64,000 nt of DNA, taken from contig CM059432.1 in NCBI GenBank assembly GCA_030390025.1, positions 52,888,001 to 52,952,000 of the forward strand. Reading direction: 5' to 3'. Each line of letters starts with the position of its first letter. Position 1 is the stretch's first letter. The translations under genes and the position numbers were made by a program. Positions 2,973 through 63,579 of this stretch are shown here, one piece after another. The notes under the pieces were generated by a model. The model made no database searches, was not told where the DNA came from, and was given only the letters and a program-made list of their open reading frames with translations. Origin of the DNA: Squalus acanthias (taxonomy: Eukaryota).

Positions 2973-3977
2973 TTATTACAAATTGCTTGATCTTGGCTGC
3001 ATACATTAGAATTAAGGGGGACATTAAAAAATAACTTCAACTGAAAGTTAAATCAACCTCAGCTACTCTCATGGACTTAGTCACTGTATTGATACAAGAT
3101 TAATAACTATATTCACCCAGATAAGTCCTTATATAAGTTGTGGGGATATTATGGGAACAATAAATTCTGACAGGCACCCAAAGCCAAGGGGTATAACAGA
3201 ACCCAAAGACATGGTTACGTAAGAACTCAGTTAGAAGCTAGACGAATAATCTCCATGAAGCAACTGTTAGAAAGGCAGATGTGGATAATGATGCTGTTAT
3301 GTTAAAACTGCTCAAGTGTCAACAGCTTAGACTCTAAGGCAGAAAAGCTTTTGGAATGTTTTTGCAAAAACACTGGACAGATGAGCTGGTACATTTATCA
3401 ATTTTGGCCAATTAAATGCTCTTGATCTTCACCAGCCAAGAAAGCAAAATATGCAACAAAATCCAGTCTCACAACCACTGCAAGGTAAGCGGTGGGACAT
3501 AAAAGCTGAAATTCAAAATTATTCCAAATAAGATGGTCACTAAAACTTCTTTGATGCTGAAAAGCTGAATTTGATCCGCAAATTTGTAATTTCACCCCAC
3601 TGAAGGAAGCAAGCGACAACATATGGACACTTTACTTTGTTGCAATGTACATTTCTACTTGCTCTTCACCCTATCTTCCAGAGTGGTGGCACAAGCTGGT
3701 GACGACTGCATGCAGCCCATGGCAAATCTCCCCTTTGATTTGAGAGAAAAAAATTCTTGTTCCAAGTAATCTCGAAGCTGTATTCGTGATTATGATTTAT
3801 AAAAAGTGAGAAAATTTTGATTGTGATGGTGCTGTAGCAATTGCCCAGTGAAGATTTTAAGTTGAATTATACAGATCAGTTTTAAGCAAAACTTTTGGAC
3901 AACACACTATCCGAAGTACCATGCAGTTTTGAAGATAAAGTTAAAACAATTAACATGATTAAGATTGAGAAGTGGTA

Positions 3978-12227: not shown

Positions 12228-12650
12228 AGAAAAAGACTTGCATTTATATAGTGCCTTTCACAACCTCAGGACGTCCCAAAGCGCTTTACAGGCAATTAAG
12301 TACTTTTAAAGTGTAATCACTGTTGTAATATAGGGAAACTGGGGCAGACAATTTGTGCAACAAATAGCAACAAGATACATGACCAAATAAATGTTTTTTT
12401 TTGTGCTGTTGGTTGATAGATAAATATTGCCCAGAAAAACTCCCCTGCTCTTCGAATAGTGCCATGGGACCTTTTACATCCACCTAAGGGGGCAGACAGG
12501 GCCTCGGTTTAACGTCTCATCCAAAAGACAGCACCTTCAATAGTGAAGCACTCCCTCAGTACTGCATTGAAGTGTCAGCCTGAATATGGCTTGAACCCAC
12601 GACCTTCTGACTCTGAGGCGGGAGCGCTACCACTCAATCATGGCCGACAC
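12228..12650 (-). mobile_element. tRNA-derived SINE (DeuSINE/SacSINE-like)
   Basis: tRNA-like head with B box (reverse complement of CTTGAACCCAC) at about 12590-12645; tail ACTTGCATTTATATAGTGCCTTTCA; related pieces at 15-120, 18143-18272, 40145-40230, 48223-48768, 51620-51990. Confidence 0.75.
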
Positions 12651-14695: not shown

Positions 14696-14960
14696 ATAAC
14701 ATAAATCTATCAATCACAATTTTGAGATTTTCAATTGATCTAGCCTCAACAACATTTTAGAGGAAGAGTTTTCCAGATTTCCACTATCCTTTATGTGAAG
14801 AAGTGCTTCTTGACATCACCCCTGAACGGCCGAGCTCTAACTTTAGGGTTATGCCCCCCCCAACCTTCCTGTTCTGGACTCCAACAGAGGAAATAATTTA
14901 TTTCCATCTCTAATATGATTAAATGATTTGATAAACACCGCAATTAGATCACCCCTTAAT

Positions 14961-17633
14961 TTTTATTCATTTATGGGATGTGGGCGTCGCTGGCAAGGCC
15001 AGCATTTATTGCCCATCCCTAATTGCCCTCGAGAAGGTGGTGGTGAGCTGCCTCCTTGAACCGCTGCAGTCCATGTGGTGAAGGTACTCCCACAGTGCTG
15101 TTAGGGAGTTCCAGGATTTTGACCCAGCAACGATGAAGGATCGGCGATATACTTCCAAGTCAGGATGGTGTGTGACTTGGGAGGGGAACTTGGAGGTGGT
15201 GGTGTTCCTATGCGCCTGCTTGTGGGTGGAAGAGGTTGCAGGTTTGGGAGGTGCTGCCTAAGAAGCCTTGGCGAGTTGCTGCAGTGCATCTTGTAGATGG
15301 TACACACTGCAGCCACCGTATGCGTGGAGATAGTGAATGTTTAAAGGTGGTGGATGGGGTGCTAATCAAGCGGGCTGCTGTCGAGCTTCTTCAGTGTTGT
15401 TGGAGCTGTACTCATCCAGGCAAGTGGAGAGTATTCCATCACACTCCTTACTTGTGCCTTGTGGATGGTGGAAAGGCTTTGGGGAGTCAGGAGGTGAGAC
15501 ACTCGCCGCAGAATACCTAGCCTCTGACCTGCTCTTGTTGCCACCATATTTATGTGGCTGGTCCAGTTAAGTTTCTGGTCAATGGTGACCCCCAGGATGT
15601 TGATGGTGGGGGATATGGCGATGGTAATGCCGTTGAATGTCATGGGGTGGTGGTTAGACTCTCGCTTATTGGAGATAGTCATTGCCTGGCACTTGTGTGA
15701 CGCGAATGTTACCTGCCACTTATCAGCCCAAGCCTGAACGTTGTCCAGGTCTTGTTGCATGCGGGCATGGACTGCTTCACTATCTGAGGAGTTGTGAATG
15801 GCACTGAACACTGTACAATCATCAGCGAACATCCCCATTTCTGACCTTATGTTGGAGGGAAGGTCATTGATGAAGCAGCTGAAGATGGTTGGGCCTAGGG
15901 CACTGCCCTGAGGAACTCCTGCAGCGATGTTCTGGGGCTGTGATGATTGACCTTCAACCACCACAACCATCTTCCTTTGTGCTAGGTATGACTTCAGCCA
16001 GTGGAGAGTTCCCCCCCCCCGATTCCCATTGACTTCAGTTTTACTAGGGCTCCTTGATGCCACACTCTGTCAAATGCTGCCTTGATGTCAAGGGCAGTCA
16101 CTCTCACCTCACCTTTGGAATTCAGCTCCTTTGTCCATGTTTGGACCAAGGCTATAACGAGGTCGGGAGCCAAATGATCTTGGCAGAACCCAAACTGGGC
16201 ATCAGTGAGCAGGTTATTGGTAAGTGCCGCTTGATAGCACTGTCGATAACACCTTCCATCACTTTGCTGATGATTGAGAGTAGACTGATCGGGCGGTATT
16301 TGGCCGGATTGGATTTGTCCTGCTTTTTGTGGACAGGACATACCTGGGCAGTTTTCCACATTGCTGGATAGATGCCAGTGTTGTAGCTGTACTGGAACAG
16401 CTTGGCTAGAGGCGCGGCTAGTTCTGGAGCACAAGTCTTCAGCACGATAGCCGGAATGTTGTCAGGGCCCATAGCCTTTGCTGTATCCAGGGTGCTCAGC
16501 CGTTTCTTGATATCACGTGGAGTGAATCGAATGGGCCGAAGAATGGCTTCTGTGATGGTGGGGACCTCAGGAGTAGGCCGATATGGATCATCCACTCTGC
16601 ACTTCTGGCTGAAGATGGTTGCAAACGCTTCAGCCTTGTCTTTTGCACTCACGTGCTGGGCTCCACCATCATTGAGGATGGGGATATTCATGGAGCCTTC
16701 TCCTCCAGTTAGTTGTTTAATGGTCCACCACCATTCACGACTGGATGTGGCAGGATGTGTTTTGATCTGATCCCTTGATTGTGGGATCACTTAGCTCCGT
16801 CTGTAGCATGCTGCTTCTGCTTTTTAGCATGCATGTAGTCCTGTGTTGCAGCTTCCCCAGGTTGGCACCTCATTTTTAGGTACGCCAGGTGCTGCTCCTG
16901 GCATGCTCTTCTACACTCCTTATTGAACCAGGGTTGGTCCCCTGGCTTGATGGTAATGGTAGAGTGAGGGATATGCCGGGCCATGAGGTTACAGATAGTG
17001 GTGGAATACAATTCTGCTGTTGCTGATGGCCCACAGTGCCTCATGGATGCTCAGTTTTGAGCTACCAGGTCTGTTCTGAATCTATCCCATTTAACACGGT
17101 GGTAGTGCCACACAACACGATGGAGGTTGTCCTCAGTGTGAAGACGGGACTTCGTCTCCACAATAACTGTGCGGTGGTCACTGCTACCAATATGGTCATG
17201 GACAGATGTATCTGCGACAGGTAGATTGGTGAGGACGAGATGAAGTATGTATTTCCCTCGTGTTGGTTCTCTCACCACCTGTCGCAGGTTATGGCAGCTA
17301 TGTCCTTCAGGACTCGGCCAGCTCGGTCAGTAGTGGTGCTACCGAGCCACTCTTGGTGATTGACATTGAAATCCCCTACCCAGAGTACATTCTGTGCCCT
17401 TGCTACTCTCCGTGCTTCGTCCAAGTGGTGTTCAACATGGAGGAGTACTGATTCATCTGCTGAGGGAGGGCAGTAGGTGGTAATCTGCAGGAGGTTTCCT
17501 TGCCCATGCTTGACCTGAAGCCATGAGACTTCATGGGGTCCGGAGTCAATGTTGAGGACTCCCAGGGCCACTCCTTCCCGACTGTATACCACTGTGCCGC
17601 CACCCCTGGTGGGTCTGTCCTCCCGGTGGGACG
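14961..17633 (-). mobile_element. APE-RT non-LTR retrotransposon (family X, copy 1, 5'-truncated, frameshifted)
   Basis: WVGDFN, SDH, ALDIKAAFDRVWH, GVPQGSALGP, MFADD motifs; tail GGGCAATAAATGCTGGCC; flanked by TAAT. Confidence 0.9.
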
Positions 17634-18142: not shown

Positions 18143-18272
18143 TAGTGCAGCACATGCTCAATACTGCACAGAAGTGTCAGCCGACATTATGTGCTCAAGT
18201 CTCTGGACTGGTGCTTGAACCCAGAACAATCTGAATCAGAGGCGAGAATGCTACCACTGAGCCTAGACTAAC
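18143..18272 (-). mobile_element. SINE tRNA-head fragment (same family as 12228-12650)
   Basis: GTGCTCAAGTCTCTGGACTGGTGCTTGAACCC...TGCTACCACTGAGCC matches 48680-48755. Confidence 0.7.
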
Positions 18273-18894
18273 GTCAATAAACAGTAGAATGAGTAAATTC
18301 TAGATAATAGCTGAACATTCAGGAGTTACCCCCCCCACCCCCCCAAACTTTCAAATCTTTTCTAACCTCACTATTGACGCTGTCCCTGAAGTTGCTTAGG
18401 GTTAAGGGCTTATCAGCATTTTCAGGATTAATCAATGGAAGTGCTGGTGAACAAAGTAAAGCTGAGCATACAAGAACAGCTTTTACAGGAACTAGACCAT
18501 AATTTTCACATTTCCTTTGGTGGGATTTAAACTCATGACCTCTGGGTTATTAGTTTAGCACCATAATCACTACACTACTGTATGTGTGTTACATTTTTCA
18601 CACCCTTTGGATTCTTGGGGGTCTCTTACCATGCACTTTCTACGCCCACATATATAGACCATCCACTCCCAGACCTCTGCGAACATAGCTATGAAAATGA
18701 AACCAGGAGGTACACATGGCAGGCGCAGCACAACTCTGCTCCATTTATATTTCCTATCTTCCTCGTGGAGAAGCGTCTGAACCTTTGCCTCATGCCTTAC
18801 TACAGCGCAACTCAGATGGGGAACTCAGTATATTGAGGGCTTAGGCATGAACCCACAACCCACCATTCAAAATATTCAAGATTACCACACAAGA

Positions 18895-19821: not shown

Positions 19822-21207
19822 CAGTAAACTCTCGTTTAAACGGCATCCAATTATCCGGAATTCTCTAATAACCGGCAAAATTCAGAAGTAGGTTCAGGAA
19901 CCCAAAGGTAAGTTTTACTGTATATTTGTGGCTGTGTAACTGGGGTTCTCGTACCTTTTGCCGTGTAACCGGGTCCCCTGTACCTGTGGCCGTGTAACCG
20001 GGTCCCCTGTACCTGTGGCCGTGTAACCGGGTCCCCTGTACCTGTGGCCGTGTAACCGGGTCCCCTGTACCTGTGGCCGTGTAACCGGGTCCCCTGTACC
20101 TGTGGCCGTGTAACCGGGGCTCCAGCACCTGTGGCCGTGTAACCGGGGCTCCAGCACCTGTGGCCGTGTAACCGGGGCTCCAGCACCTGTGGCCGTGTAA
20201 CCGGGGCTCCAGCACCTGTGGCCGTGTAACCGGGGCTCCAGCACCTGTGGCCGTGTAACCGGGGCTCCAGCACCTGTGGCCGTGTAACCGGGGCTCCAGC
20301 ACCTGTGGCCGTGTAACCGGGGCTCCAGCACCTGTGGCCGTGTAACCGGGGCTCCAGCACCTGTGGCCGTGTAACCGGGGCTCCAGCACCTGTGGCCGTG
20401 TAACCGGGGCTCCAGCACCTGTGGCCGTGTAACCGGGGCTCCAGCACCTGTGGCCGTGTAACCGGGGCTCCAGCACCTGTGGCCGTGTAACCGGGGCTCC
20501 AGCACCTGTGGCCGTGTAACCGGGGCTCCAGCACCTGTGGCCGTGTAACCGGGGCTCCAGCACCTGTGGCCGTGTAACCGGGGCTCCAGCACCTGTGGCC
20601 GTGTAACCGGGGCTCCAGCACCTGTGGCCGTGTAACCGGGGCTCCAGCACCTGTGGCCGTGTAACCGGGGCTCCAGCACCTGTGGCCGTGTAACCGGGGC
20701 TCCAGCACCTGTGGCCGTGTAACCGGGGCTCCAGCACTTGTGGCCGTGTAACCGGGGCTCCAGCACTTGTGGCCGTGTAACCGGGGCTCCAGCACCTGTG
20801 GCCGTGTAACCGGGGCTCCAGCACTTGTGGCCGTGTAACCGGGGCTCCAGCACTTGTGGCCGTGTAACCGGGGCTCCAGCACCTGTGGCTGTGTAACCGG
20901 GGCTCCAGCACCTGTGGCCGTGTAACCGCGGCTCCTGCACCTGTGGCCGTGTATCAGGGGCTCCTGGATCTGTGGCCGTGTAACAGGGGCTCCTGTACCT
21001 GTGGCCGTGTAACAGGGACTCCTGGATCTGTGGCTGTGTAACCAGGGCTCCTGTGCCTGTACAACCGGGGCTCCAGTACCTGTGGCCGTGTAACCGGGAT
21101 CCTGCACCTGTGGCTGTGTAACGGGGCTCTCGTACCTTGGTAGGTATACCTCTCCGTTATCCGGAATTTTTAATCAACCGGCACCCCGGATATGTAAGAG
21201 TTTAATA
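19822..21207. mobile_element. Putative pogo/Tigger-like MITE shell enclosing a minisatellite
   Basis: TA|CAGTAAACTCTCG left end; degenerate right end AAGAGTTTAATA|TA; subterminal repeat TTATCCGGAATT...AACCGGCA at 19851 and 21157. Confidence 0.5.
19928..21138. repeat. 29-bp GC-rich minisatellite, about 41 units
   Basis: Unit CCTGTGGCCGTGTAACCGGGGCTCCAGCA (20/29 GC); variant blocks at both ends. Confidence 0.97.
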
Positions 21208-22111: not shown

Positions 22112-25100
22112 GGGAATGGCAGCATCGTGGTTATGTTACTGGACTAGTAATCCAGAGGAATAAAAAGCTAGTATCAGTAATGGTGACCATGAAACTACCG
22201 GATTGGCATTAAAAACCCATCTGGATCACTAATGTCCTTTAGGGAAGGAAATCTGCTGTCCTTACTGGGTCTGGCCTATGTGACTCCAGACCCACAGCAA
22301 TGTGGTTGACTCCTAACTGCCCTCTGAAATGGTCCAGCAAGCCACTCAGTTGTACCAAACCGCTACAAAAAATAAGATTAAAACCGGACGGACCACCGGC
22401 ATCAACTTAGTCACCGGCTTCAGACACAATACTACACCCAGCCCAGTTGACCCTGCAAAGTCCTCCTCACTAACATCTGGGGACATGTGCCAAAATTGGG
22501 AGAGCTGTCCCACAGACTAGTCAAGCAACAGCCTGACAGTCATACTCATAGAATCATACCTTTCAGCCAATGTCCCAGACTCCCCCATCACCATCCCTGG
22601 GTATGTCCTGTCCCACCAGCAGGACGGACCCACCAGAGGTGATGGCACAGTGGTATACAGTCGGGAGGGAGTGGCCCTGGGAGTCATAAGAACATAAGAA
22701 ATAGGAGCAGGAGGAGGCCATTTGGCCCATCGAGCCTGCTCTGCCATTCGATAAGATCTTGGCTGATCTGGTCTTGGCCTCAACTCCACTTTTCTGTCCG
22801 CTCCCCATAACCCTCGACTCTCTCATTGTTCAAAAATCTGTCCATCTCCACCTTAAACATATTCAATGACCCAGCCGCTACAGCTCTCTTGGGTAGAGAA
22901 TTCCAAAGATTCACAACCCTCGGAGAAGAAATTCCTCCTCATCTCAGTTATAAATGGGCGACCCCTTATTCTGAAACTATGCCCTCTAGTTCTAGATTCC
23001 CCCACGAGGGGAAACAACCTCTCTGCATCTACTCTGTCAAGCCCCCTCAGAATCTTATACGTTTCAATAAGATCACCTCTCATTCTTCTAAACTCCAATG
23101 AGTATAGGCCCAACCTGCTCAACCTTTCCTCATAATACAACCCCTTCATCTCAGGAATTAACCTAGAGAACCTTCATTGAACTGCCTCCAATGCAATGAT
23201 ACCCCTCCTTAAACATTGACTACGGACCCCATGAAGTCTCATGGCTTCAGGTCAAGCATGGGCAAGAAAACCTTCTGCTGATTACCACCTACTGCCCTCC
23301 CTCAGCTGAGGAGTCAGTACTCCTCCATGTTGAACACCACTTGGAAGAAGCACGGAGGATAGCAAGGGCACAGAATGTACTCTGGGTGGGGGACTTCAAT
23401 CTCCATCACCAAGAATGGCTTGGTAGCACCACTACTGATCGAGCTGGCCGAGTCCTGAAGGACATAGCTGCCAGACTGGGCCTGCGGCAGGTGGTGAGAG
23501 AACCAAAACGAGGGAAAAACCTACTTGAACTCATTCTCACCAATCTACCTGTCGCAGATGCATCTGTCCATGACAGTGTTGTTAGCAGTGACCACCGCAC
23601 ATGAGACGAAGTCCCGTCTTCACACTGAGGACGCCCTTCATTGGGTTGTGCGGCACTACCACCGTGATAAATGGGATAGATTCAGAACAGGTCTAGCAGC
23701 TCAAAACTGGGCATCCTTGATGTGCTGTGGGCCATCAGCAGCAGCAGAATTGTATTCCACCACAATCTGTAACCTCATGGTCCGGCATATCCCTCACTCT
23801 ACCATTACCATCAAGCCAGGGGACCGACCAAACAACCCTGGTTCAATGAGGAGTGCATAAAAGCATGCCAGGAGCAGCACCAGGCATACCTTAAAAATGA
23901 AGTGCCAACCTGGAGAAGCTGCAACACAGCGTGCTAAACAGCATGCTAGAGACAGAGCTAAGTGATCCCACAACCAACAGATCAGATCAAAGCTCTGCAG
24001 TTTTGCCACATCCAGTCGTGAATGGTGGTGGACAACTAAACAGAGGAGGAGGCTCCAAGAATATCCCCATCCTCAATGATGGTGGAGCCCAGCACGTAAG
24101 TGCAAAATATAAGGCTGAAGCATTTGCAATCATCTTCAGCCAGAAGTGCTGAGTGGATGATCCATCTCGGCCTCCTCCATCTGATCAAGAAGTGGCTGAG
24201 CGCACTGGATACAGCAAAGGCTATGGGCGCCGACAACATCCCGACTGGTGTGCTGAAGACTTGTGCTCCAGAACTAGTCACGCCTCCAGTCAAGCTGTTT
24301 TAGTACAGCTACAACACTGGCATCTACCCGACCATGTGGAAAACTGCCCAGGTATGTCTTGTCCACAAAAAAGGACAAATTCCATCCGGCCAATTACTGC
24401 CCTATCAGTCTACTCGCAATCATCAGCAAAGTGATTGAAGGCATCGTTGACAGTGCTAACAAGTGGCACTTACTCACCAACAACCTGCTCACCGATGCTC
24501 AAGTGTGTGTTCTGCCAGGACCACTCGGCTCCAGACCTCATTACAGCCTTGGTTCAAACATGGACAAAAGAGCTGAATTCCAGAGGTGAGGGGAGAGTGA
24601 CTGCCCTTGACATTAAGGCAGCATTTGACCGAGTGTGGCATCAAGGAGCCCGAGTAAAATTGAAGTCAATGGGAATCAGGGGGAAAACTCTCCACTGGCT
24701 GGAGTCATACCTAGCACAAACGAAGATGGTTGTGGTTGTTGGAGGCCAATCATCTCAGCCCCAGGACATCGCTGCAGGAGCTCCTCAGGACAGTGTCCTA
24801 GGCCCAACCATCTTCAGCTGCTTCATCAATGATCTTCCCTCCAACTTAAGGTCAGAAGTGGGGATGTTCGCTGATGATTGCACAGTGTTCAGTTCCATTC
24901 GCAACTCCTCAGATAATGAAGCAGTCCATGCCCTCATGCAGCAAGACCTGGATAACATTCAGGCTTGGGCTGGTAAGTGGCCCATCCAGGACAAATCAGC
25001 CCATTTGATTGGCACCCTATCCACCACCTTAAACATTCACTCCCTCCACCACCGGCGCACTGTGGTTGCAGTGTGTACCGTCTACAAGATGCACTTCAGC

Positions 25101-25445
25101 AACTGGCCAAGGCTTCTTTGTCAGCACCTCCCAAACCCGCAACCTCTACCACCTAGAAGGACAGGGGCAGCAGGCACATGGAAACACCATCACCTCCAAG
25201 TTCCTCCCCCCCACCACCCCCAAGTTACACACCATCCTGACTTGGAAATATAATCGCCGTTCCTTAATCGTCGCTGGGTCAAAATCCTGGAACACCCTCC
25301 AGCACTGTAGGAGTACCTTCACCAGAAGGACTGCAGTGGTTCAAGAAGGTGGCTCACCACCGCCTTCTCGATGGCAATTAGAGATGGGCAATAAATGCTG
25401 GCCTTGCCAGTGACACCCACATCCCAGGAACGAATTTAAAAAAAA
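22112..25445 (+). mobile_element. Family X LINE copy 2, with SINE-like head (B-box region deleted) and an internal deletion near 24980
   Basis: Starts GGGAATGGCAGCATCGTGGTTATG; APE and RT motifs; same 3' tail as the other copies. Confidence 0.9.
22686..23211 (-). mobile_element. CR1 3' fragment nested in family X copy 2
   Basis: ORF 22853-23149(-) LGLYSLEFRRMRGDLIETYKIL; interrupts host GGGAGTC|...AACATTGAC. Confidence 0.9.
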
Positions 25446-30197: not shown

Positions 30198-33100
30198 GGG
30201 AATGGTAGCACAGTGGTTATGTTACTGGACTAGTAATCCAGAGGCCTGGACTGATCCAGAGACACGAGAGTTCAAATCCCAACACGGCAACTGGGGAATT
30301 TAAATTCAGTTAATTAAATAAAACTGGAATAAAAAGCTAGTATCAGTAATGCTGACCATGAAACTATCGGATCGTCATAAAAACCCATCTGGTTCACTAA
30401 TGTCCTTTTTAGGGAAGGAAATCTGCCATCTTTACCTGGTCTGGCCTATATGTGACTCCAGACCCACAGCAACGTGGTTGACTCTTGACTGCCCTCTGAA
30501 ATGGCCCAGAAAGCCACTCAGTTACACAACCGCTACAAAAAACAATAATAAAACCGGACGGACCACCCGGCATCGACTTAGGACACAACGGCACAACCAG
30601 CCCAGTCCACCCTGCAAAGTTCTCCTCACTAACATCTGGGGACTTGTGCCAAAATTGGGAGAGCTGTCCTACAGACTAGTCAAGCAACAGCCTGACAGTC
30701 ATACTCACAGAATTATACCTTTCAGCCAATGTCCCAGACTCCCCCATCACCATCCCTTCACCACCACCGGCAGGACAGACCCAACCAGAGGTGGCGGCAC
30801 AGTGGTATACAGTCGGGAGGGAGTGGGCCTAGGAGCCCTCAACATTGACTATGGACCCCATAAAGTCTCGTGGCTTCAGGTAAAGCATGGGCAAGGAAAC
30901 CTCCTGCTGATTACCACCTACCATCCTCCCTCAGTTGATGAATCAGTACTCCTCCATGTTGAACACCACTTGGAAGAAGCACGGAGGATAGCAAGGGCAC
31001 AGAATGTACTCTGGGTGGGGGACTTTAATCTCCATTTCCAAGAGTGGCTCGGTAGCACCACTACTGACTGAGCTGGCCGAGTCCTGAAGGACATAGCTGC
31101 CAGACTGGGCCTGTGACAGGTAGTGAGAGAACAAAAACGAGGGAAAAACCTACTTGACCTCGTCCTCACCAATCTACCTGTCGCAGATGCATCTGTCCAT
31201 GACCGCATTGGTAGCAGTGACCACCACACAGACTTGTTCACACTGAGGACACCCTCCATCGTGTTGTGTGGCACGACCACTGTGCTAAATGGGATAGATT
31301 CAGAACAGATCTAGCTGCTCAAAACTGGGCATCCATGAGGCGCTGTGGGCCATCAGCAGCAGCAGAATTGTATTCCACCACAATCTGTAATCTCATGGCT
31401 CGGCATATCCCTCACTATCATTACCATCAACCCTGGTTCTATGTGGAGTGCGTAAGAGCAGGCCAGGAGCAGCAGCAGGAGTACCTAAAAATGACTTACC
31501 AACCTGAGGAAGCTGCAAAACAGGACTAAATGCATGCTAAATAGCGAAAGCAGCATGCTATGGACAGAGCTAAGCGATCCCACAATCAACGGATCAGATC
31601 AAAGCTCTGCAGTCCTGCCACATCCAGTCGTGAATGCTGGTGGACAATTAAACAACTAACGGGAGGAGGCTGCTCCATGAATATCCCCATCCTCAATGAT
31701 GGCGAAGCCCAGCACGCGAGAGCAAAAGACAACGCTGAAGCGTTTGCAACCATCTTCAGCCAGAAGTGCTGAGTGGATGATCCATCTCGGCCTCCTCCTG
31801 AGGTCCCCACCATCACAGAAGCCAGTCTTCAGCCAATTTGATTCACTTCACGTGATAACAAGAAACGGCTGAGCGCAGTGGGTACAGCAAAGGCTATGGG
31901 GCTCTGACAACATCCCGGCTGTCGTGCTGAATACTTGTGCTCCAGAACTAGTCGGGCCTCTATACAAGCTGTTGCAGTACAGCGACAACTCTGGCATCTA
32001 CCAGACAATGTGGAAAACTGCCCAGGTGCGTCCTGTCCACAAAAAGCAGGACAAATCCAATCCGGCCAATTATTGCCCCATGAGTCTACTCTCAATCATT
32101 AGCAAAGTGATGGAAGGTGCCGTCGACAGTATCATCAAGCGGCACTTACTCACCGATGCTCAAGTTTGGGTTCCGCCAGGACCACTCGGCTCCCGACCTC
32201 ATTACAGCCTTGGTTCAAACATGGACAAAAGAGCTGAATTCCAGAGGCAAGGTGAGAGTGACTGCCCTTGACATCAAGGCAGCATTCGACCGAGTGTGGC
32301 ATCAAGGATCCCTAGTAAAACTGAAGTCAATGGGAATCAGGGGGAGAACTCTCCACTGACTGGAGTCATACCTAGCACAAACGAAGATGGTTGTGGTTGT
32401 TGGAGGCCAATCATCTCAGCCCCAGGAGATCGCTGCAGGAGTTCCTCAGGGCAGTGTCCTAGGCCCAACCATCTTCAGCTGCTTCATCATAAGGTCAGAA
32501 GTGGGGATGTTCACTGATGATTGCAATGTTCAGTTCCATTTGCAACACCTCAGTTAATGAATCAGTCCATGCCCGCATGCAGCAAGACCTTGACAACATT
32601 CAGGCTTGGGCTGAAAAGTGCCAAGTAAGATTCGCGCCACACAAGTGCCAGGCAATGATTATCTCCAACAAGCGAGACTAACCACCACCCCTTGACATTC
32701 AACAGCATTACCATCGCCGAATCCCCCACCAGCATCCTGGGGTCACCACTGACCAGAAACTTAACTGGACCAGCTACAAATATTGTGGCAACAAGAACAG
32801 GTCAGAGGCTGGGTATTCTGCGAGTGTCTCACCATCTACAAGGCACAAGTCAGAGGTGTGATGGACTACTCTCCACTTGACAAGATGAGTGCAGCTCCAA
32901 TAACTTTCAAGGAGCTCGACACCACCCAGGACAAAACAGCCCGATTGACTGGCGATCCATCCACCACCTTAAACATTCACTCCCTCCACCACCGGCGCAC
33001 CGTGGCTGCAGTGTGTACCATCTACAAGTTGCACTGCAGCAACTCACCAAGGCTTCTTCGACAGCACTTCCCAAACCCACGACCTCTACCACCTAGGAGA

Positions 33101-33374
33101 CGACGTGCAGCAGGCGCATGGGAACACCATCACCTGCAAGCTCCCCTCCAAGTTACACACCATCCCGAGTTGGAAATATATCACGGTTCTTTCATTGTCG
33201 CTGGGTCAAAATCCCGGAACTCCCTCCCTAACAGCACTATGGGAGTATCTTCAGCACATAGACTGCAGCGGTTCAAGAAGGCTGCTCACTACCACCTTCT
33301 CAAGGGCAATTAGGGAAGGGCAATAAATGCTGGCCTTGCCAGCGACACCCACATCCCAGGATCGAATAAAAAAA
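30198..33374 (+). mobile_element. Family X LINE copy 3, apparently full length, with a tRNA-derived head
   Basis: A box, B box and SINE-like body, then APE (LLTNIWGL, WVGDFN, SDH) and RT; A-rich tail; several stops and frameshifts. Confidence 0.92.
30206..30279 (+). promoter_or_regulatory. Type 2 RNA polymerase III internal promoter (A and B boxes)
   Basis: A box TAGCACAGTGG 30206-30216; B box GTTCAAATCC 30270-30279. Confidence 0.7.
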
Positions 33375-33599
33375 GTTCATCGCCTTCTGCTTTATTGTAA
33401 AGAGATGTTCTCTTGGCAGGCATCTGGGGCAACTTCCAAACCCAAGGTTATTTGAAAAATTATGATTAGCGAAAGAAAAATTAGAGTGCCCATATTTTAC
33501 TGCATCAGAGCAAAATGCACCAACTGGACAAATTGGCTTCATTTTTCTACTGGGACTACAGCAAGGTTGAATATTTTCCTGGTGTTTAGAAATGGAATG

Positions 33600-39208: not shown

Positions 39209-39275
39209 AGTAAATTAGATACAGAATCTCCAAAGCATATATAGATAGAAAACAAAGCATGTGTACTTTACAATT

Positions 39276-39376
39276 GCAGACCAATAAATTAAATCATCCT
39301 GACTATGCAGACCAATAAATTAAATCATCCTGACTATGCAGACCAATAAATTAAATCATCCTGACCAATAAATTAA
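39276..39376. repeat. 31-bp tandem repeat (about 3 units) at the palindrome centre
   Basis: Unit GCAGACCAATAAATTAAATCATCCTGACTAT at 39276, 39307 and 39338 (partial), plus a CAATAAATTAA remnant. Confidence 0.95.
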
Positions 39377-45700: not shown

Positions 45701-48222
45701 CTAAAATGAAAAAGGGAAATAATGATATTTTATATTCAGGAGGAACCTTAAGAATTTATCCTCGACCTGTCATAAAAAAATGACCTCTTGTAGTTATGGT
45801 GAAAATATCAACGAGCACAGCATTATGTTACAATCAAAACTTGCTGCTGTGCCACCATACGTCATCTTTTCTGACCCTTGAGCTTTGAAAGTTTGTCCAC
45901 CTATGTACATCTTGGAACAAAGCAACACAAATCAATAGAATTTAATAGTTTTTATTCTGTTGTGCTGACCAAAGTAATGGGCAAACATTAAAATAGTTAA
46001 CTAGCTGAAGTATAGACTGCCTCATTGTTTGAATGAGATGCAACTTATATACGTACACTAGGAATTTCAGTCAACCACAAGGAAACCGAGGCAGACCCGT
46101 CTTTAAGTCATGCAATGTCACCTTCCCCCAATTTGCTATAAAAATATACCCGATTTGGACCGTGCTTTTACCTCTGACTGAAGGGAGCAGCACTGAGTCC
46201 CCAAGTAACATCAAGAGCACTGAAACTTACAATAAAGAAAAAAAATTGCTTCAAGCAACAGGGGTAGTTTAAAAAACCCACTAGAGTTAGGGCAAGAGAG
46301 AATTTCAATATAAACAAACACGTGAACAAGTATTAGGTATGAAGTGTCTGGTATTCGCTGGAGGATAAAATGAGTTGACCAGAAACAAGCTACCAGGTAG
46401 AACTCAGGAACCCCATACCAAGTGGTGAAAAATAAATGATGCATTGGTCAGAGAGAGATGTTGCTAACCACCAAAACAAAAAACTGCATCAAAAACACAT
46501 GTTCTTCCGATAAACATTTATAGGAAATACAAGAACTGCACAATTATGAATGTCATATGTACAGCCAACACTGCTACTGCAACTAGCAAGCCACTCAGTT
46601 GTACCAAACCGCTATGAAAAACTATAACAATAAAATCGGACGGACCACCCAGCTTCAACCTAGGCACCAGATTAAGACACGACAAATGCACACCCAGCCC
46701 AGTCAACCCTGCAAAGTCCTCCTCACTAACAACTGGGGACTTCTGCCAAAATTGGGAGAGCTGTCCCACAGGCTAGTCAAGCAACAGCCTTAAGTAGTCA
46801 TACTCTCAGAACCATACCTTTCAGCCAAAATCCCAAACTCTTCCACCACCATCCTTGGGTATGTCCTGCCCCACCAGCAGAACAGACCCACCAGAGGTAG
46901 CGGCACAGTGGTATAAAGTTGGGAGGGAGTGGCCCTGGGAAAGCTCAACATTGACTCCGGACCCCATGAAGTGTCATGGCATTAGGTCAAACACAGACAA
47001 GGAAACCTCCTGCTGATTACCACCTACCATCCTCTTTCAGCTGATGAATCAGTACTCCTCCATGCTGAACACCACTTGGAAGAAGCACGGAGGGCAGCAA
47101 GGGCACAGAATGCACTCTGGTTGGGGGCTTCAATGTCCATCACCAAGTGTGGCTCAGTAGCACCACTACTGACTGAGCTGGCCGAGTCCTGAAGGGCATA
47201 GCTGCCAGACTGGGCCTGCAGCAGGTGGTGAGAGAACCAACATGAAGGAAAAACCCACCTGACCTCATCCCCACCAATCTACCTGTCGCAGATGCAGTTG
47301 TCCATGACAGTATTGGTAGCAGTGACCACTGCAATGTCCCTGTGGAGACAAAGTCCCATCTTCACACTGAGGACACCCATCATGTTGTGTGGGATAGATT
47401 CAGAACAGATCTAGCAGCTCAAAACTGGGCATCCATGAGGCGCTGTGGGCCATTAGCAGCAGAACTGTATTCCACCACAATCTAACCTCATGGCTGGGCA
47501 TATCCCTCACTCTAACATTACCATCAAGCTACGGTACTAACCCTGGTTCAATGAGGAGTGTAGAAGAGCATGTCAGGAGCCGCACCAGGCATACCTAAAA
47601 ATGAGATGCCAACCTGGATAAGTTACAACACAGGACTACATGCATGCTAAACAGCGGAAGCAGCATGCCAACAGAAACAGCGAAGCGATCCCACAACCAA
47701 CGAATCAGATCAAAGCTCTGCAGTCCTGCCACATCCAGTCGTGAATGGGGGTGGACAATTAAACAACTAACAAAAGGAGAAAGCTCCATGAACATCCCCA
47801 TCCTCAATGATGGCGGAGCCCAGCACGTGAGTGGAAAAGACAAGGCTGAAGTGTTTGCAACCATCTTCAGCCAGAAGCGCCGAATGGATGATCCATCTTG
47901 GCCTCCTCCTGAGGTCTACACTATCCCTAAGCCAGTCTTCAGCCAATTCAATTCACTCCACGTATATCAAGAAACTACTGAGTGCACTGGATACAGCAAA
48001 GGCTATGGGCCCTGACAACATCGCGGCTGTCGTGCTGAAGACTTGTGCTTCAAAACTTGCTGGGCATCTAGCCAAGCTGTTCCAGTACAGCTACATCACT
48101 GGCATGTACCCGACAAAGTGGAAAATTGCCCAGGTATGTCCTATCCACAAAAAGCAGGACAAATCAAATCCGGCCAATTACTGCCCTATCAGTCTACTCT
48201 CAATCAGCAGCAAAGTGATGGA

Positions 48223-48768
48223 AAAAGAAAGAAAAAAACTTGGATTTATATAGCGCCTTTCATGACCACTGGACGTACCAAAGCCCTTCACAGCCAATGA
48301 AGTACTTTTTGAAATGTAGTCACGATTGCAACGTAGGAAATGTGGTAGCCAATTTGCGCACAGCAAGCTCCCACAAACAGCAATGTGCTAATTACGAGAT
48401 AATCTGTTTTAGTGATGTTGATTGAGGGATCAATATTGGCTAGGACTCCTGGTATAACTTATCTTTGAATAGTGCCATAGGATCTTTTACTTCCACCTGA
48501 GAGAGCAGACAGGGCCTCGGTTTAACATCAGCCATAATCTTATTGAATGGTGGAGCAGGCTCGAGGGGCCATATAGCCTACTTCTGCTCTTATTTCTTAT
48601 GTTCTTAACATCTCATCCGAAAGACAGCAGCTCCGACAGTGCAGCACTCTCTCAGTACTGGAGTGTCAGCCTAGATTTCTGTGCTCAAGTCCCTGGAGTG
48701 GGACTTGAACCCACAACCTTCTGACTCAGAGGCGATGGTGCTACCAACTGAGCCATGGCTAACGCACC
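48223..48768 (-). mobile_element. DeuSINE-like tRNA SINE nested in family X copy 4
   Basis: Colinear with 12228-12650; interrupts host GTGATGGAA|GG.GTCGT with GAA duplicated. Confidence 0.85.
48530..48604 (+). mobile_element. 75-bp CR1 3' end nested in the SINE
   Basis: Matches 38985-39060; TSD TTAACATC at 48522-48529 and 48605-48612. Confidence 0.85.
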
Positions 48769-49533
48769 AGAAGGGGTCGTTGACAGTGCTATCAAGCAGC
48801 ACTTACCAATAACCTGCTCACTGATGCTCAGTTTGTGTTGCATCAGGACCACTTGGCTCCAGACCACATTACAGCCTTGGTCCAAACATGGACAAAATAC
48901 CTGAATTCCAGAGGTGAGAACAGAGTGACTGCCCTTGACATCAAGGCAGCATTTGACCAGAGTCTGGCATGAAGCAGCCCTCGTAAAATTGAAGTCAATG
49001 GGAATCAGGGGGAAAATGCTCCACTGGCTGGAGTCATACCTAGCACAAAGGAAGATGGTTGTGGTTTTTGGAGGCCAATCAGCTCAGCCCCAGGACATCG
49101 CTGCAGGAGTTCCTCAGGGCAGTGTCCTAGACCCAACCATCTTCAGCTGCTTCATCAATGACCTTCCCTCCTTAAGGTCAGAAGTGGGGATGTTTGCTGA
49201 TGATTGCAGTGTTCAGTTCCATTCACAACTCCTCAGATAATGAAGCAGTCTGTGCCCGGATGCAGCAAGACCTGGACAACATTCAGGCTTGAGCTGATAA
49301 GTGGCAAGTAACATTTGCATCACACAAGTGCCAGGCAATGACTATCTCCAACAAGAGAGAGTCTAACCACCCCCCCTTGACATTCAATGGCATTACCATC
49401 CTCTAATCCCCCACTAACATCCTGGGGGTCACCACTGACCACACACTTAACTGGACCAGCCACATAAATACTGTGGCTACAAGAGCAGGTCAGAGGCTAG
49501 GTATTCTGCAGCAAGTGACTCACCTCCCGACTC

Positions 49534-49672
49534 ACAGAAACATAGAAAAATAGGAGCAGGAGTAGGCCATTCGGCCCTTCGAGCCTGCTCTGCCATTCAG
49601 TATGATCATGGCTGATCCTCTATCTCAATACCATATTCCCGCTCTCTCACCATACCCCTTGATGCCTTTGGT
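49534..49672 (-). mobile_element. CR1 3' end nested in family X copy 4
   Basis: ATAGGAGCAGGAGTAGGCCATTCGGCCC tail; TSD GACTC. Confidence 0.85.
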
Positions 49673-50849
49673 GACTCCCCAAAGCCTTTCCACCATCTAC
49701 AAAGTACAAGTCAGGAGTGTGATGGAATACTCTCCACTTGCCTGGATGAGTGCAGCTCCAACACTCAAGAAGCTTAACACCATCCAGGACAAAGCAGCCG
49801 GCTTGACTGGCACCCCATCCACCTTAAACATTCACTCCTTCCACCACCGGCGCACTGTGGCTATGTGTGTACCATCTACAAGATGCACTGCAGCAACTTG
49901 CCAAGGCTTCTTTGACAGCACTTCCCAAACCTGTGACCTCCACCACCTAGAAGGACAAGGGCTGCAAGTGCATGGGAACACCACCACCTAAAGTTACACA
50001 CCATCCTGACTTGGAAATATATCGCTGTTCCTTCAGCGTCGCTGGGTCAAAATCCTCGAACTCCCTCCCTAACAGCACTGTGGGAGTACCTTCACCACAC
50101 GGACTGCAGCTCTTCAAGAAGGCGGCTCACCACCACCTTCTCAATGGTAATTAGGGATGGACAATAAACGACAGCCTTGACAGCGATGCCAACATTCCGT
50201 GAATTAATTAAAAAAAAACTATGAGGCATGATTCTGAACAAATCTTTATACACAATAGATGGGGGTGAAATCACCGTACCAAAATGGTAGTGAATTTTTG
50301 AAAGGAATAATGCCTCGATTAATTCTCTCTCTCCCCCCCCCACCCCCGGACCCAGGTGAATGAGTAAATCCTAATTTTGGATGCAAAATATCAAATTAAA
50401 ACCAAACATTTGCTACCATTTTCTTCAACATAACTGAACCCCATTCCTTTGATATGAACAACTTATATCAAACAGATGGCGAGATTGACAGATGTCAAGA
50501 CCTGCTTCAGAAAATCATATGCATGTACTTAGGCTTGCATTTTATTTGCAATCATAAACATTGAACACAAGCTCCATTGTTTTAACAGAATAGATATGTC
50601 CACATTAATAGTCACACAGATGGTTCTATGGTACAGCCAGAAAAAGTGGAAGGCTGCATTTGCATGGCTATTTTTTCATGCAGTTACCATTAGAGAAAGC
50701 CTGTTTGGAAGGCATGCTGTTTTTAACCTGGTGTACAAGTAGAACCCCCGTATGCTTTCAGAAGTGGATATTTTAATAACAAAACAGCACTAAAAATACT
50801 ACCAGAATCATAATTCTTAAAAATAAATTTCAAAACAAACTCAACTTAC

Positions 50850-61584: not shown

Positions 61585-62574
61585 GTATACAGTGCTGTTC
61601 CCCAGGGGTCGGTTCTAGGACCACTGCATTTCTGGATATATATTAATGACTTGGACATGGGTGTACAGGGCACAATTTCAAAATTTGCAGATGACAAAAC
61701 TTGGAAGTATAGTGAACAGTGAGGAAGATAGTGATAGACTTCAAGAGGACATAGACAGGCTGGCAGAATGGGCGGACACGTGGCAGATTAAATTTAACAC
61801 CAAAAAGTGCAAAGTGATACATTTTGGTAGAAAGAATAAGGAGGAAATATAAACTAAAGGGTATAATCCTAAATGGGTTGCATGAACAGAGAGACCTCGG
61901 GGTTTATGTGCACAAATTGTTGAAGGTGGCAGGGCAGGTTGAGAAAGCAGTTAAAAAGGCTTATGGGATCCTGGGCTTCATGAATAGAGGTATAGAGTAC
62001 AAAAGCGTGGAATTATGATGAACCTGTATAAAACACTGGTTCGGCCTCAAATGGAGTATTGTGTCCAATTCTGGGCACCGTACTTCAGGAAGGATGTGAA
62101 GGCCTTGGAGAGGGTGCAGAAAAGATTTACGAGAATGATTCCAGGGATGAGGGACTTCAGTTATGTGGATAGACTGGAGAAGCTGGGGTTGTTCTCCTTA
62201 GAGCAGAGAAGATCAAGAGGAGGTTTGATAGAGGTGTTCAAAATCATGAGGAGTCTTAATAGAGTAGATAGAGAGAAACTGTTCCCATTGGCAGAGGGGT
62301 CAAGAACCAGAGGACACAGATTGAAGGTGATTGGCAAAAGAACCAAAGGCGACATAAGAAAAAATGCAGTGAGTTGTTAGGATCTAGAATGCACTGCCCG
62401 AAAGGGTGGTGGAGGCAGACTCAATCACGGCTTTCAAAAGGGAGTTGGATAAGTACCTGAATGAAAAAAAATTGCAGGGCTGCGGGGGAGTGGGACTAGC
62501 TGAGGTGCCCTTGCAGAGAGTTGGCACGGACTCGACAGACCGAATGGCCTTCTTCCGTGCTGTAACCATTGTAT
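61585..62574 (+). mobile_element. 5'-truncated CR1, nested in the host ORF1
   Basis: ORF 62015-62380; TSD GATTAC at 61579-61584 and 62575-62580. Confidence 0.9.
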
Positions 62575-63579
62575 GATTACTATCTTTGAGGTTCTGTTTA
62601 TCCAACTGTTTCCTAGCTCCCTAAAATCTGCCTGCAAGACCTCATCCCTCTTTCTACCTATGTCATCGGTACTGATATGGACCACGACCTCTGGCTGTTC
62701 ACCATTTCCCCCACCCACCAAACAAGCAACAGGCCATCATTATTCTAGCAACTTTTCTCCTCCATTTTGACTCTTTGAATCCAATAGTGTCTTTCTGCAA
62801 ATTGTACTGCAGAGAAGAATCAGAATCAGCATCCTAGAATAGAAGTACTATTCTTTTTAAATCACTTGATGGGGCACAGCAATTCCAAGTACAAACTACG
62901 CAATTTCAATTATTTGTAAATTAGTCCTTCAGAATTTGGTTCAACTTTTCTTGAATGAGCAGAGATAGTTAAGACAGAATAAATATACCAACTTCAACAA
63001 ATTCCACCTTACCCACGCTAATCGCAAGCTGTGTTTATATTCCATGGTGTTAATTTTGGGCATATGCTAATGACAACTCAGTTTACTACATGTGCAAGAT
63101 ATCAAATTCCACTTCTACAAACTGAATTTTTTTTCATAACTACTGTACATTTCAAAACCTAATGTAACCACTACATTTTGCAGCATGTTCAAATACTTTT
63201 TTTTATATTTTACTCCATTCAGCCATCTATGTCAAAATACTGCACAAAATTTTGCAATTTGTTACAACAGAAACACCTTGGATGTAGCAACAGGAATATA
63301 AATTTGAAAACTACTGTGCTGTCCTAAATATCATACAAGGAAAACAAAATTCAAGTTATCATCATGAAGTTAGTGATGTAAAAAAAATCCAGAAATCTAA
63401 AAACGCATTAATGCTTACTATAAAGAGAACCGTACAACGAATATGCAATTCCATGATAGACAGTTGCATTATGAAAATAATGGAGTAGAAGATGGCGAAA
63501 GAGGATGAAGAACAGAGATAATGGCAACTGAAAAAAAAAATCAAGAACAGTTGTCCAACTGTTAAAGATATATATTTAC

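Follow-up and report, generated by a model that had tools for sequence, protein, structure and literature searches.

Four copies of a Zenon LINE in the window

The window analyzed here, a stretch of 64,000 nucleotides of Squalus acanthias DNA (contig CM059432.1, positions 52,888,001 to 52,952,000 of the forward strand), contains four copies of one LINE family. Copy 3, on the plus strand at 30198..33374, is a full-length, decayed Zenon LINE, 7.7% off the majority sequence of the family and with many frameshifts, and represents an inactive member of a 3.3-kb shark element that was already described. Copy 1 (14960..17630, minus strand) lacks its 5' end, copy 2 (22112..25444, plus strand) has a partly deleted head and a CR1-type insert at about 22684-23211, and copy 4 (46585..50218, plus strand) starts at the end of the SINE-type body and is interrupted by inserts at about 48224-48769 and 49534-49671.

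Judged by its sequence, the family is Zenon, an elasmobranch LINE already in the literature and a member of the CR1 group. The first 400 nt of the SquAca_Zenon-1 consensus match our majority sequence almost base for base when compared by eye, and the lengths agree (3,314 nt for SquAca_Zenon-1 versus ca. 3,300 here; PMC13343379). The reverse transcriptase tree contained no named Zenon reference, and the clade placement therefore rests on this by-eye match over 400 nt. In its available text, the account of elasmobranch Zenon (Stuart et al., 2026; PMC13343379) gives the same absence of ORF1, the same endonuclease and reverse transcriptase domains and the same poly(A) end, and no difference at the family level is apparent.

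The family unit and its coding frame

With the head-frame junction as the query, the genome yielded 11,509 first-look candidates, of which 40 were scored, and 39 of these 40 matches are other copies of the family, with 85-89% identity. The majority sequence was built from 20 near-full-length uninterrupted copies (19 fetched copies plus copy 3), two of which are duplicates of each other. The family unit that emerges is ca. 3.3 kb long and runs from a tRNA-like head through a SINE-type body, a basic leader and an APE endonuclease plus reverse transcriptase frame to a stem-loop tail and poly(A). Among loci selected by their head, 24 of 29 continue into the frame, a proportion biased by the use of a LINE copy as the query, and 37 of 69 head alignments begin at base 1. 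Head, body and frame thus form one unit genome-wide.

The endonuclease and reverse transcriptase frame lies at 30613..33313 on the plus strand, where it is broken in copy 3. In the majority sequence it is a single long frame of 937 codons, counted from the first endonuclease motif, and natural copies match Pfam RVT_1 and Exo_endo_phos(_2). An ORF1 was sought in the 424 nt from base 1 to the endonuclease motif, where only upstream frames of at most 34 codons were found. Because pN/pS is 0.21 for variants shared between copies (with a single shared stop) versus 0.72 for rare variants (P=4e-9), the source lineages have kept a working frame under purifying selection. Target-site duplications of at least 6 nt were seen in none of 27 complete copies. 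Over the first 1.3 kb, the variants common to several copies form a mosaic rather than a tree, a pattern suggestive of recombination or of template switching between source copies.

A tRNA-like head and a Deu-like body

The head of copy 3 (30198..30290, plus strand) is tRNA-like in that it contains, by sequence and a pattern test, an A box TAGCACAGTGG at 30206..30216 and a B box GAGTTCAAATCC at 30268..30279, both on the plus strand and both named from the standard box consensuses. The A box stands at +9 and the B box ca. 65 nt further on, which is the correct spacing for a Pol III type-2 unit. The resemblance to tRNA is otherwise slight: the Rfam tRNA match at 30199-30258 falls below threshold (19 bits, E 0.52), and ARAGORN calls no tRNA gene in the copy 3 head. 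The same program reports no tRNA in 55 loci of related LINEs, a result to be read with its failure to detect the Zenon head, and no A/B box pair was found upstream of the comparator LINE frames described below, many of whose contigs have no 5' end.

The head is followed by a body (30375..30520, plus strand, boundaries approximate) which is common to the SINE forms L113, L115, L119, L123 and L129 and which presumably corresponds to what is called a Deu domain. Compared by description only, it also fits the SacSINE1 element in the available text of PMC5499810. Folding of the 5' 420 nt shows nothing special beyond that of shuffled sequences (z=0.28).

The arrangement of an A/B-box head at the 5' end of the family fits transcription by Pol III and, on balance, we consider it probable that Zenon is transcribed end to end by this polymerase from the boxes of the head, with cap-free translation of the product. 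A Deu-SINE head would have joined the Zenon frame before the split of sharks and rays, replacing the promoter. Pol III would then initiate at the very beginning of the head and, needing a terminator-free stretch of 3.3 kb, would continue through the A-tail and stop, as in Alu, where the flanking DNA first offers a T4. Ribosomes would enter this uncapped RNA internally, in the leader that separates body and endonuclease, and mostly at non-AUG codons, and the protein would copy its own RNA in cis from the 3' stem-loop and A-tail and would also move the head-plus-tail SINE forms in trans.

In L1 elements, an extra G ahead of the first base of the element is a sign of a capped template. Such a G precedes the Zenon head in only 5 of 59 cases, a scarcity which gives a weak hint against a cap.

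The 3' end and a capped alternative

Alu-like Pol III units do not require a terminator of their own and stop at the next genomic T4, and the 3' end of Zenon can be read against this background. The tail of copy 3 (33314..33374, plus strand) contains AATAAA at 33322-33327, the stem-loop GCTGGC-CTT-GCCAGC at 33329-33343 and an A7 run at 33368-33374, and is without T4; the first genomic T4 downstream lies at 33495. A T-run terminator belonging to the element is absent from most 3' ends, with a single T ahead of the A-tail in 50 of 76 and four or more in 9 of 76, and the next genomic T4 lies ca. 110 nt beyond the element (median of 30 ends). A built-in T-terminator combined with polyadenylation, at which a few GAATTTTTAAAA ends hint, was discarded in view of the 50 ends with a single T.

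These same features count against the Pol III reading inasmuch as a poly(A) end, AATAAA and the lack of an own terminator in most copies suit Pol II equally well. In the corresponding alternative, Zenon is transcribed by Pol II and its SINE head is vestigial or has been put to another use, the RNA being capped and arising from an internal Pol II promoter in head or leader, or from host read-through, and its T-poor strand reflects either a composition that Zenon inherited or selection, in an intronless RNA, against splice, poly(A) and decay signals rich in U. The poly(A) end with AATAAA close to the 3' terminus is what this alternative predicts, LINEs are generally held to be Pol II transcripts (PMC5786205, in its available text), and the lepidopteran Zenon described in the available text of PMC6740152 operates without a Pol III promoter. 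It is harder to reconcile with the distribution of AATAAA, which occurs three times in the first 360 nt, in the head region, and once in the tail, since signals so near the start would presumably be awkward for Pol II. Also significant is the retention of the head: in the first 400 nt of the published consensuses, inspected by eye, the same head with A-like and B-like boxes opens the Zenon elements of five elasmobranchs, the boxes being kept at the extreme 5' end although the spacers have diverged, whereas two Zenon elements from hagfish and one from coelacanth lack a head at their start and contain T4+ runs (PMC13343379). None of the listed sequencing sets that contain the element is on record as RNA; four presumed-RNA contig sets from four organisms cover 30 of 30 bins of a full-length copy, but contigs of this kind are blind to start, strand and cap and were left out of the evidence. 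With the AATAAA signals, the retained head and the T-run data given below taken together, the capped Pol II alternative appears rather unlikely.

Avoidance of T-runs on the sense strand

Vertebrate Pol III terminates at runs of four or more Ts, a rule presumed to extend to sharks. In yeast, according to the available text of bioRxiv 2021.08.27.457903, T4 is a weak terminator, a point against the Pol III reading. A sequence-only reading of the window had reported by eye that the sense strand of the family is nearly devoid of such runs, and the count bears this out: with nested inserts removed, there are exactly four across the four copies (T4 at 24001 and 24298 in copy 2, T5 at 30406 in copy 3 and T5 at 49065 in copy 4), and copy 1 is, as stated, free of them. 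This amounts to four runs in 11,604 nt versus 16.4 expected from T content, and the antisense strand of the same copies has 66. At the four sites the majority sequence has GTCCTG, GTTCCAG, CCTTTAG and GGTGGTTG, close to what had been read from the other copies in the window. The neighboring CR1-type elements are rich in TTTT, as had also been noted (41 runs in 8,724 nt over nine pieces in the window), with the exception of the piece at 61585-62577, which has one T4 run in 993 nt.

The further claim that each run is private to one copy holds among the four copies in the window and does not extend genome-wide, the exception being the run at 30406..30410 (plus strand). This T5, the only T4+ run of copy 3, stands where the family reads CCTTTAG, and T4 or T5 is present at the same site in 13 of 70 genome copies. 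Because subfamily markers fail to group the copies that carry it (11 of 60 copies, P=0.745), the run is a recurrent mutation hot spot and not an inherited terminator. An active subfamily with T5 at this site was considered and ruled out, as the carriers are scattered.

The majority sequence itself contains no T4 over its 3.3 kb and seven TTT. A complete absence of T4 is improbable under mononucleotide shuffling (P=0.017) and uniform codon choice (P=0.005), but not under a first-order Markov model (P=0.23) or in synonymous-codon shuffles (P=0.11). The sequence-only reading had named a consensus with T4+ runs, or shuffled controls that often lack them, as grounds for giving up the idea; the consensus is T4-free, yet so are 11% of the synonymous shuffles, and taken alone the absence of T4 comes close to the second of these outcomes and is weak to modest evidence. 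The lack of significance against synonymous shuffles is also a point in favor of the Pol II alternative.

A stronger signal is the graded avoidance of T-runs. Within the frame there are 5 TTT versus 11.2 expected (P=0.006, ratio 0.44), and the TT dinucleotide is also depleted (ratio 0.70). Hexanucleotide windows with four Ts number 8 versus 28.1 expected (ratio 0.28), a value as low as this occurring in none of 2,000 shuffles, and A-rich windows show no significant depletion (P 0.05-0.45). At third codon positions the fraction T/(T+C) falls as the resulting T-run grows, from 138/339 through 41/146 and 5/40 to 0/2 (odds ratio 0.2, P=2e-4, or P=0.002 after removal of CpG sites), and with CpG sites removed the odds ratios for avoidance are 0.14 for T-runs, 0.36 for C-runs and 0.51 for G-runs, the last two being avoided as well, though less strongly, which counts against the Pol III reading. 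Single family copies tested alone give weaker P values (0.003-0.085). Loss of Phe at the protein level was tried as a cause and set aside as marginal (2.3% Phe versus 2.4-4.5% in 34 relatives).

This avoidance is not a post-insertion mutation bias of the host. Rare C>T changes produce T-runs at a near-normal rate (0.027, 0.026, 0.023 and 0.017), and for this reason the host mutation process fails to explain the lack of T-runs. Among shared variants to T, none of 231 chances to create T3+ was taken, versus 20 of 2,194 otherwise, a difference that is not significant and suggestive only. A bias could also arise within the life cycle of the element, if its reverse transcriptase or an RNA editor stripped TT and TTT from the sense strand without any selection acting on transcription. 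The depletion of TT, which T4 termination does not directly require, would be accounted for in this way, but changes after insertion show no such bias, the hot spot at the TTT of the body adds Ts rather than removing them, and among the other LINEs in this genome depletion is absent or mild. Such an artefact is highly improbable.

Comparison with other LINEs and SINEs

In comparison with related LINEs, a check that the sequence-only reading had called for, the family is an outlier. From 160 related-LINE loci on public contigs, 121 with a frame of at least 400 codons were kept; these are single contigs, many of them from a few host-contaminated assemblies and hence not independent, and they are mostly distant and AT-richer. 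None of the 121 frames is T4-free, and the lowest TTT ratio among them is 0.75 and the lowest ratio for T-rich windows 0.83 (median 0.99), versus 0.44 and 0.28 in the shark family. Within the same genome, 100 family segments have 0.20 T4 per kb, versus 3.0-6.2 in the four largest other LINE groups. The proposal of selection against T-runs is thus upheld as far as a graded, T-specific avoidance goes that sets the family apart from 121 LINE frames, and the step from there to Pol III read-through is one that we infer.

The nearest relative for which DNA was found, L210, shares 37% identity (with a weak tree support of 0.61); it comes from genome contigs, resembles Zenon, is almost complete and has poly(A), and viral contigs gave no DNA of the closest relatives (42-45% identity). 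Eukaryotic LINEs, L210 included, turn up in bacterial genome bins through contamination by host DNA. L210 has a family-like composition and an AUG start. Its T content of 0.20 and the single T4 in its frame of 953 codons favor the Pol II alternative in its form of an inherited composition, and its avoidance of TTT is mild (odds ratio 0.44, P=0.01). Its 3' UTR carries T5 and T6, and its contig has no visible 5' end. Because L210 is matched in composition, poor in T4 and mildly TTT-avoiding, part of the T-run trait may predate the acquisition of the head. The depletion in the shark family goes far beyond this level, however, with 5 TTT+ runs and a ratio of 0.44 versus 15 and 0.83 in the L210 frame, and the AT-richer head is likewise T4-free, both of which speak against composition as the explanation.

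An old tRNA-headed SINE of the same genome has 10 T4 versus 24.8 expected, with ratios of 0.96 for TT and 0.79 for TTT. Since this SINE is T4-poor and not TT-poor, a strong loss of TT and TTT is not a generic Pol III mark.

Translation of the frame

There are eight AUGs upstream of the endonuclease, the last of which is at the end of the body (30501..30503, plus strand). This ATG shares the reading frame of the endonuclease in 48 of 60 copies and in most is followed by in-frame stops: it reads ATG-GCC-TA(G) in 36 copies, a second in-frame TAA is present in at least 44 (n=60), and the next in-frame AUG lies beyond most of the endonuclease. On inspection by eye, the ATG-GCC-TAG motif is also present in each of the five elasmobranch consensuses given in PMC13343379. 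A reading in which no AUG occurs until codon 292 is rejected in view of the 48 in-frame, though mostly stopped, body-end ATGs. Because most copies lack a usable AUG ahead of the endonuclease, initiation is likely to be non-canonical under either polymerase. The presence of eight upstream AUGs and the lack of a usable one help the cap-free view, yet they would burden a capped RNA equally.

The leader that would hold the start (family positions ca. 345-410, ca. 30530-30610 in the window) encodes a basic stretch of Arg, His and Lys with AAT and hexamer repeats and varies in length in multiples of three. Since the variation is by tri- and hexamer repeats, this keeping of frame is weak evidence of translation. 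Similar basic leaders occur in the invertebrate relatives P0009 and P0152. An out-of-frame ATG is present in the leader of about half of the copies and also in the consensuses of other species, as far as the available sequences go.

The difficulty of translation could be avoided by a division of labor, in which Pol III RNA is only the template for reverse transcription, the protein comes from capped Pol II read-through of some copies, and cap-independent translation is unneeded. Trans-mobilization does seem to occur, in that 5 of the 29 head-selected loci are head-plus-tail SINE forms which jump from the head to the last 80-145 nt of the element, and internal deletions are common. The lack of a usable AUG in most copies is in keeping with the same scheme, as is the number of first-look candidates (11,509), abundant enough to lie in host transcripts. 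On the other hand, the purifying selection seen on shared variants (pN/pS 0.21, one shared stop) suggests that each source RNA depended on the frame it carried itself, as expected under cis preference, and this renders a division of labor improbable. The head-plus-tail forms (L113, L115, L119, L123, L129, L079 and L086) differ in their junctions, with head ends at 270-343 and tail starts at 3157-3229, which suggests repeated origin or several subfamilies.

Relation to known elements and implications

The Zenon family is known, and its SINE-type promoter head, its avoidance of T-runs and its missing AUG go unremarked in the main text of PMC13343379, where 'tRNA', 'polymerase III' and 'Deu' do not occur. 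The top results of a literature search, Repbase reports and subscription papers aside, described neither an autonomous LINE transcribed by Pol III nor the head of shark Zenon.

Close parallels in architecture are SacSINE1 and LmeSINE1, which, in the available texts of PMC5499810 and PMC3747384, have a tRNA-related head, a Deu-type body and a LINE-type tail. These are non-coding elements of ca. 400 nt, with tails tied to L2-2_CM or CR1-4_DR-like LINEs (PMC5499810; PMC3747384), whereas Zenon, set apart from them by description, has a 2.8-kb coding frame between body and tail. With 3.3 kb and a frame under purifying selection, full-length Zenon falls outside the class of short non-coding SINEs, into which only the head-plus-tail form fits. 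Uncapped translation has been described for R2 and L1Tc, likewise single-frame non-LTR elements, the RNA of which is thought to be translated through an IRES-like 5' end (review PMC6765202, in its available text). There the cap is lost through cleavage of Pol I or polycistronic RNA by an HDV-like ribozyme (PMC6765202), unlike the Pol III source proposed here; an Rfam search of copy 3 gave no ribozyme match. Other associations of tRNA and LINE sequences are more limited: in the available text of PMC5786205 the tRNA-like sequence joined to the LINE RTE-1_DAn is mentioned only as the source of database hits, and the mammalian tRNA/LINE-1 chimeras of PMC13174262 comprise, as presented there, 21 loci, mostly with antisense half tRNAs, without a propagating family and without whole A/B boxes. 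Lepidopteran Zenon and its derivative Persaeus share the ca. 3.3-kb length, poly(A) and short 5'+3' forms, Persaeus having neither tRNA homology nor a Pol III promoter in the available account (PMC6740152).

In its fullest form, the preferred Pol III reading would be that a SINE captured a LINE frame and became an autonomous, wholly Pol III-transcribed retrotransposon, kept terminator-free over 3.3 kb since before the shark/ray split, with uncapped RNA, a non-AUG start and the Deu domain acting as a ribosome entry element. We put this forward tentatively, as a possibility somewhat short of an even chance. The Pol III transcriptome is described as one of short non-coding RNA (PMC10498592, in its available text), and a natural 3.3-kb Pol III mRNA would, if real, break both this rule and the Pol II rule for LINEs. 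It would also blur the divide between SINEs and LINEs, and would give a conserved SINE body a testable function, that of translation entry. Zenon lends itself to direct tests of promoter, cap and reporter activity, since its copies are numerous and its head is short.

Other repeats in and around the copies

Several further repeats were observed in the window and in Zenon copies elsewhere. A GC-rich 29-bp minisatellite occupies 19960-21129 (ca. 40 copies, 94% matches) and is the reason for the long stop-free frames at 19851-21173, and a perfect 31-bp tandem of 2.9 copies lies at 39275-39365. The insert of copy 4 at 48224-48769 (minus strand) is a tRNA-headed SINE that includes a short fragment of a CR1-type tail; the sense strand of this SINE is T4-free up to the 3' end, and related pieces are found at 12228-12516 and 18144-18273. 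A Zenon copy at another locus contains an LTR-type element with long open frames (L038:1868-5809, minus strand), and a further one contains an intact 988-codon CR1 ORF2 (L068:2665-5628, minus strand), for which each of the 40 scored matches in the genome shows 100% identity across 829 nt, indicating a very young CR1 family.
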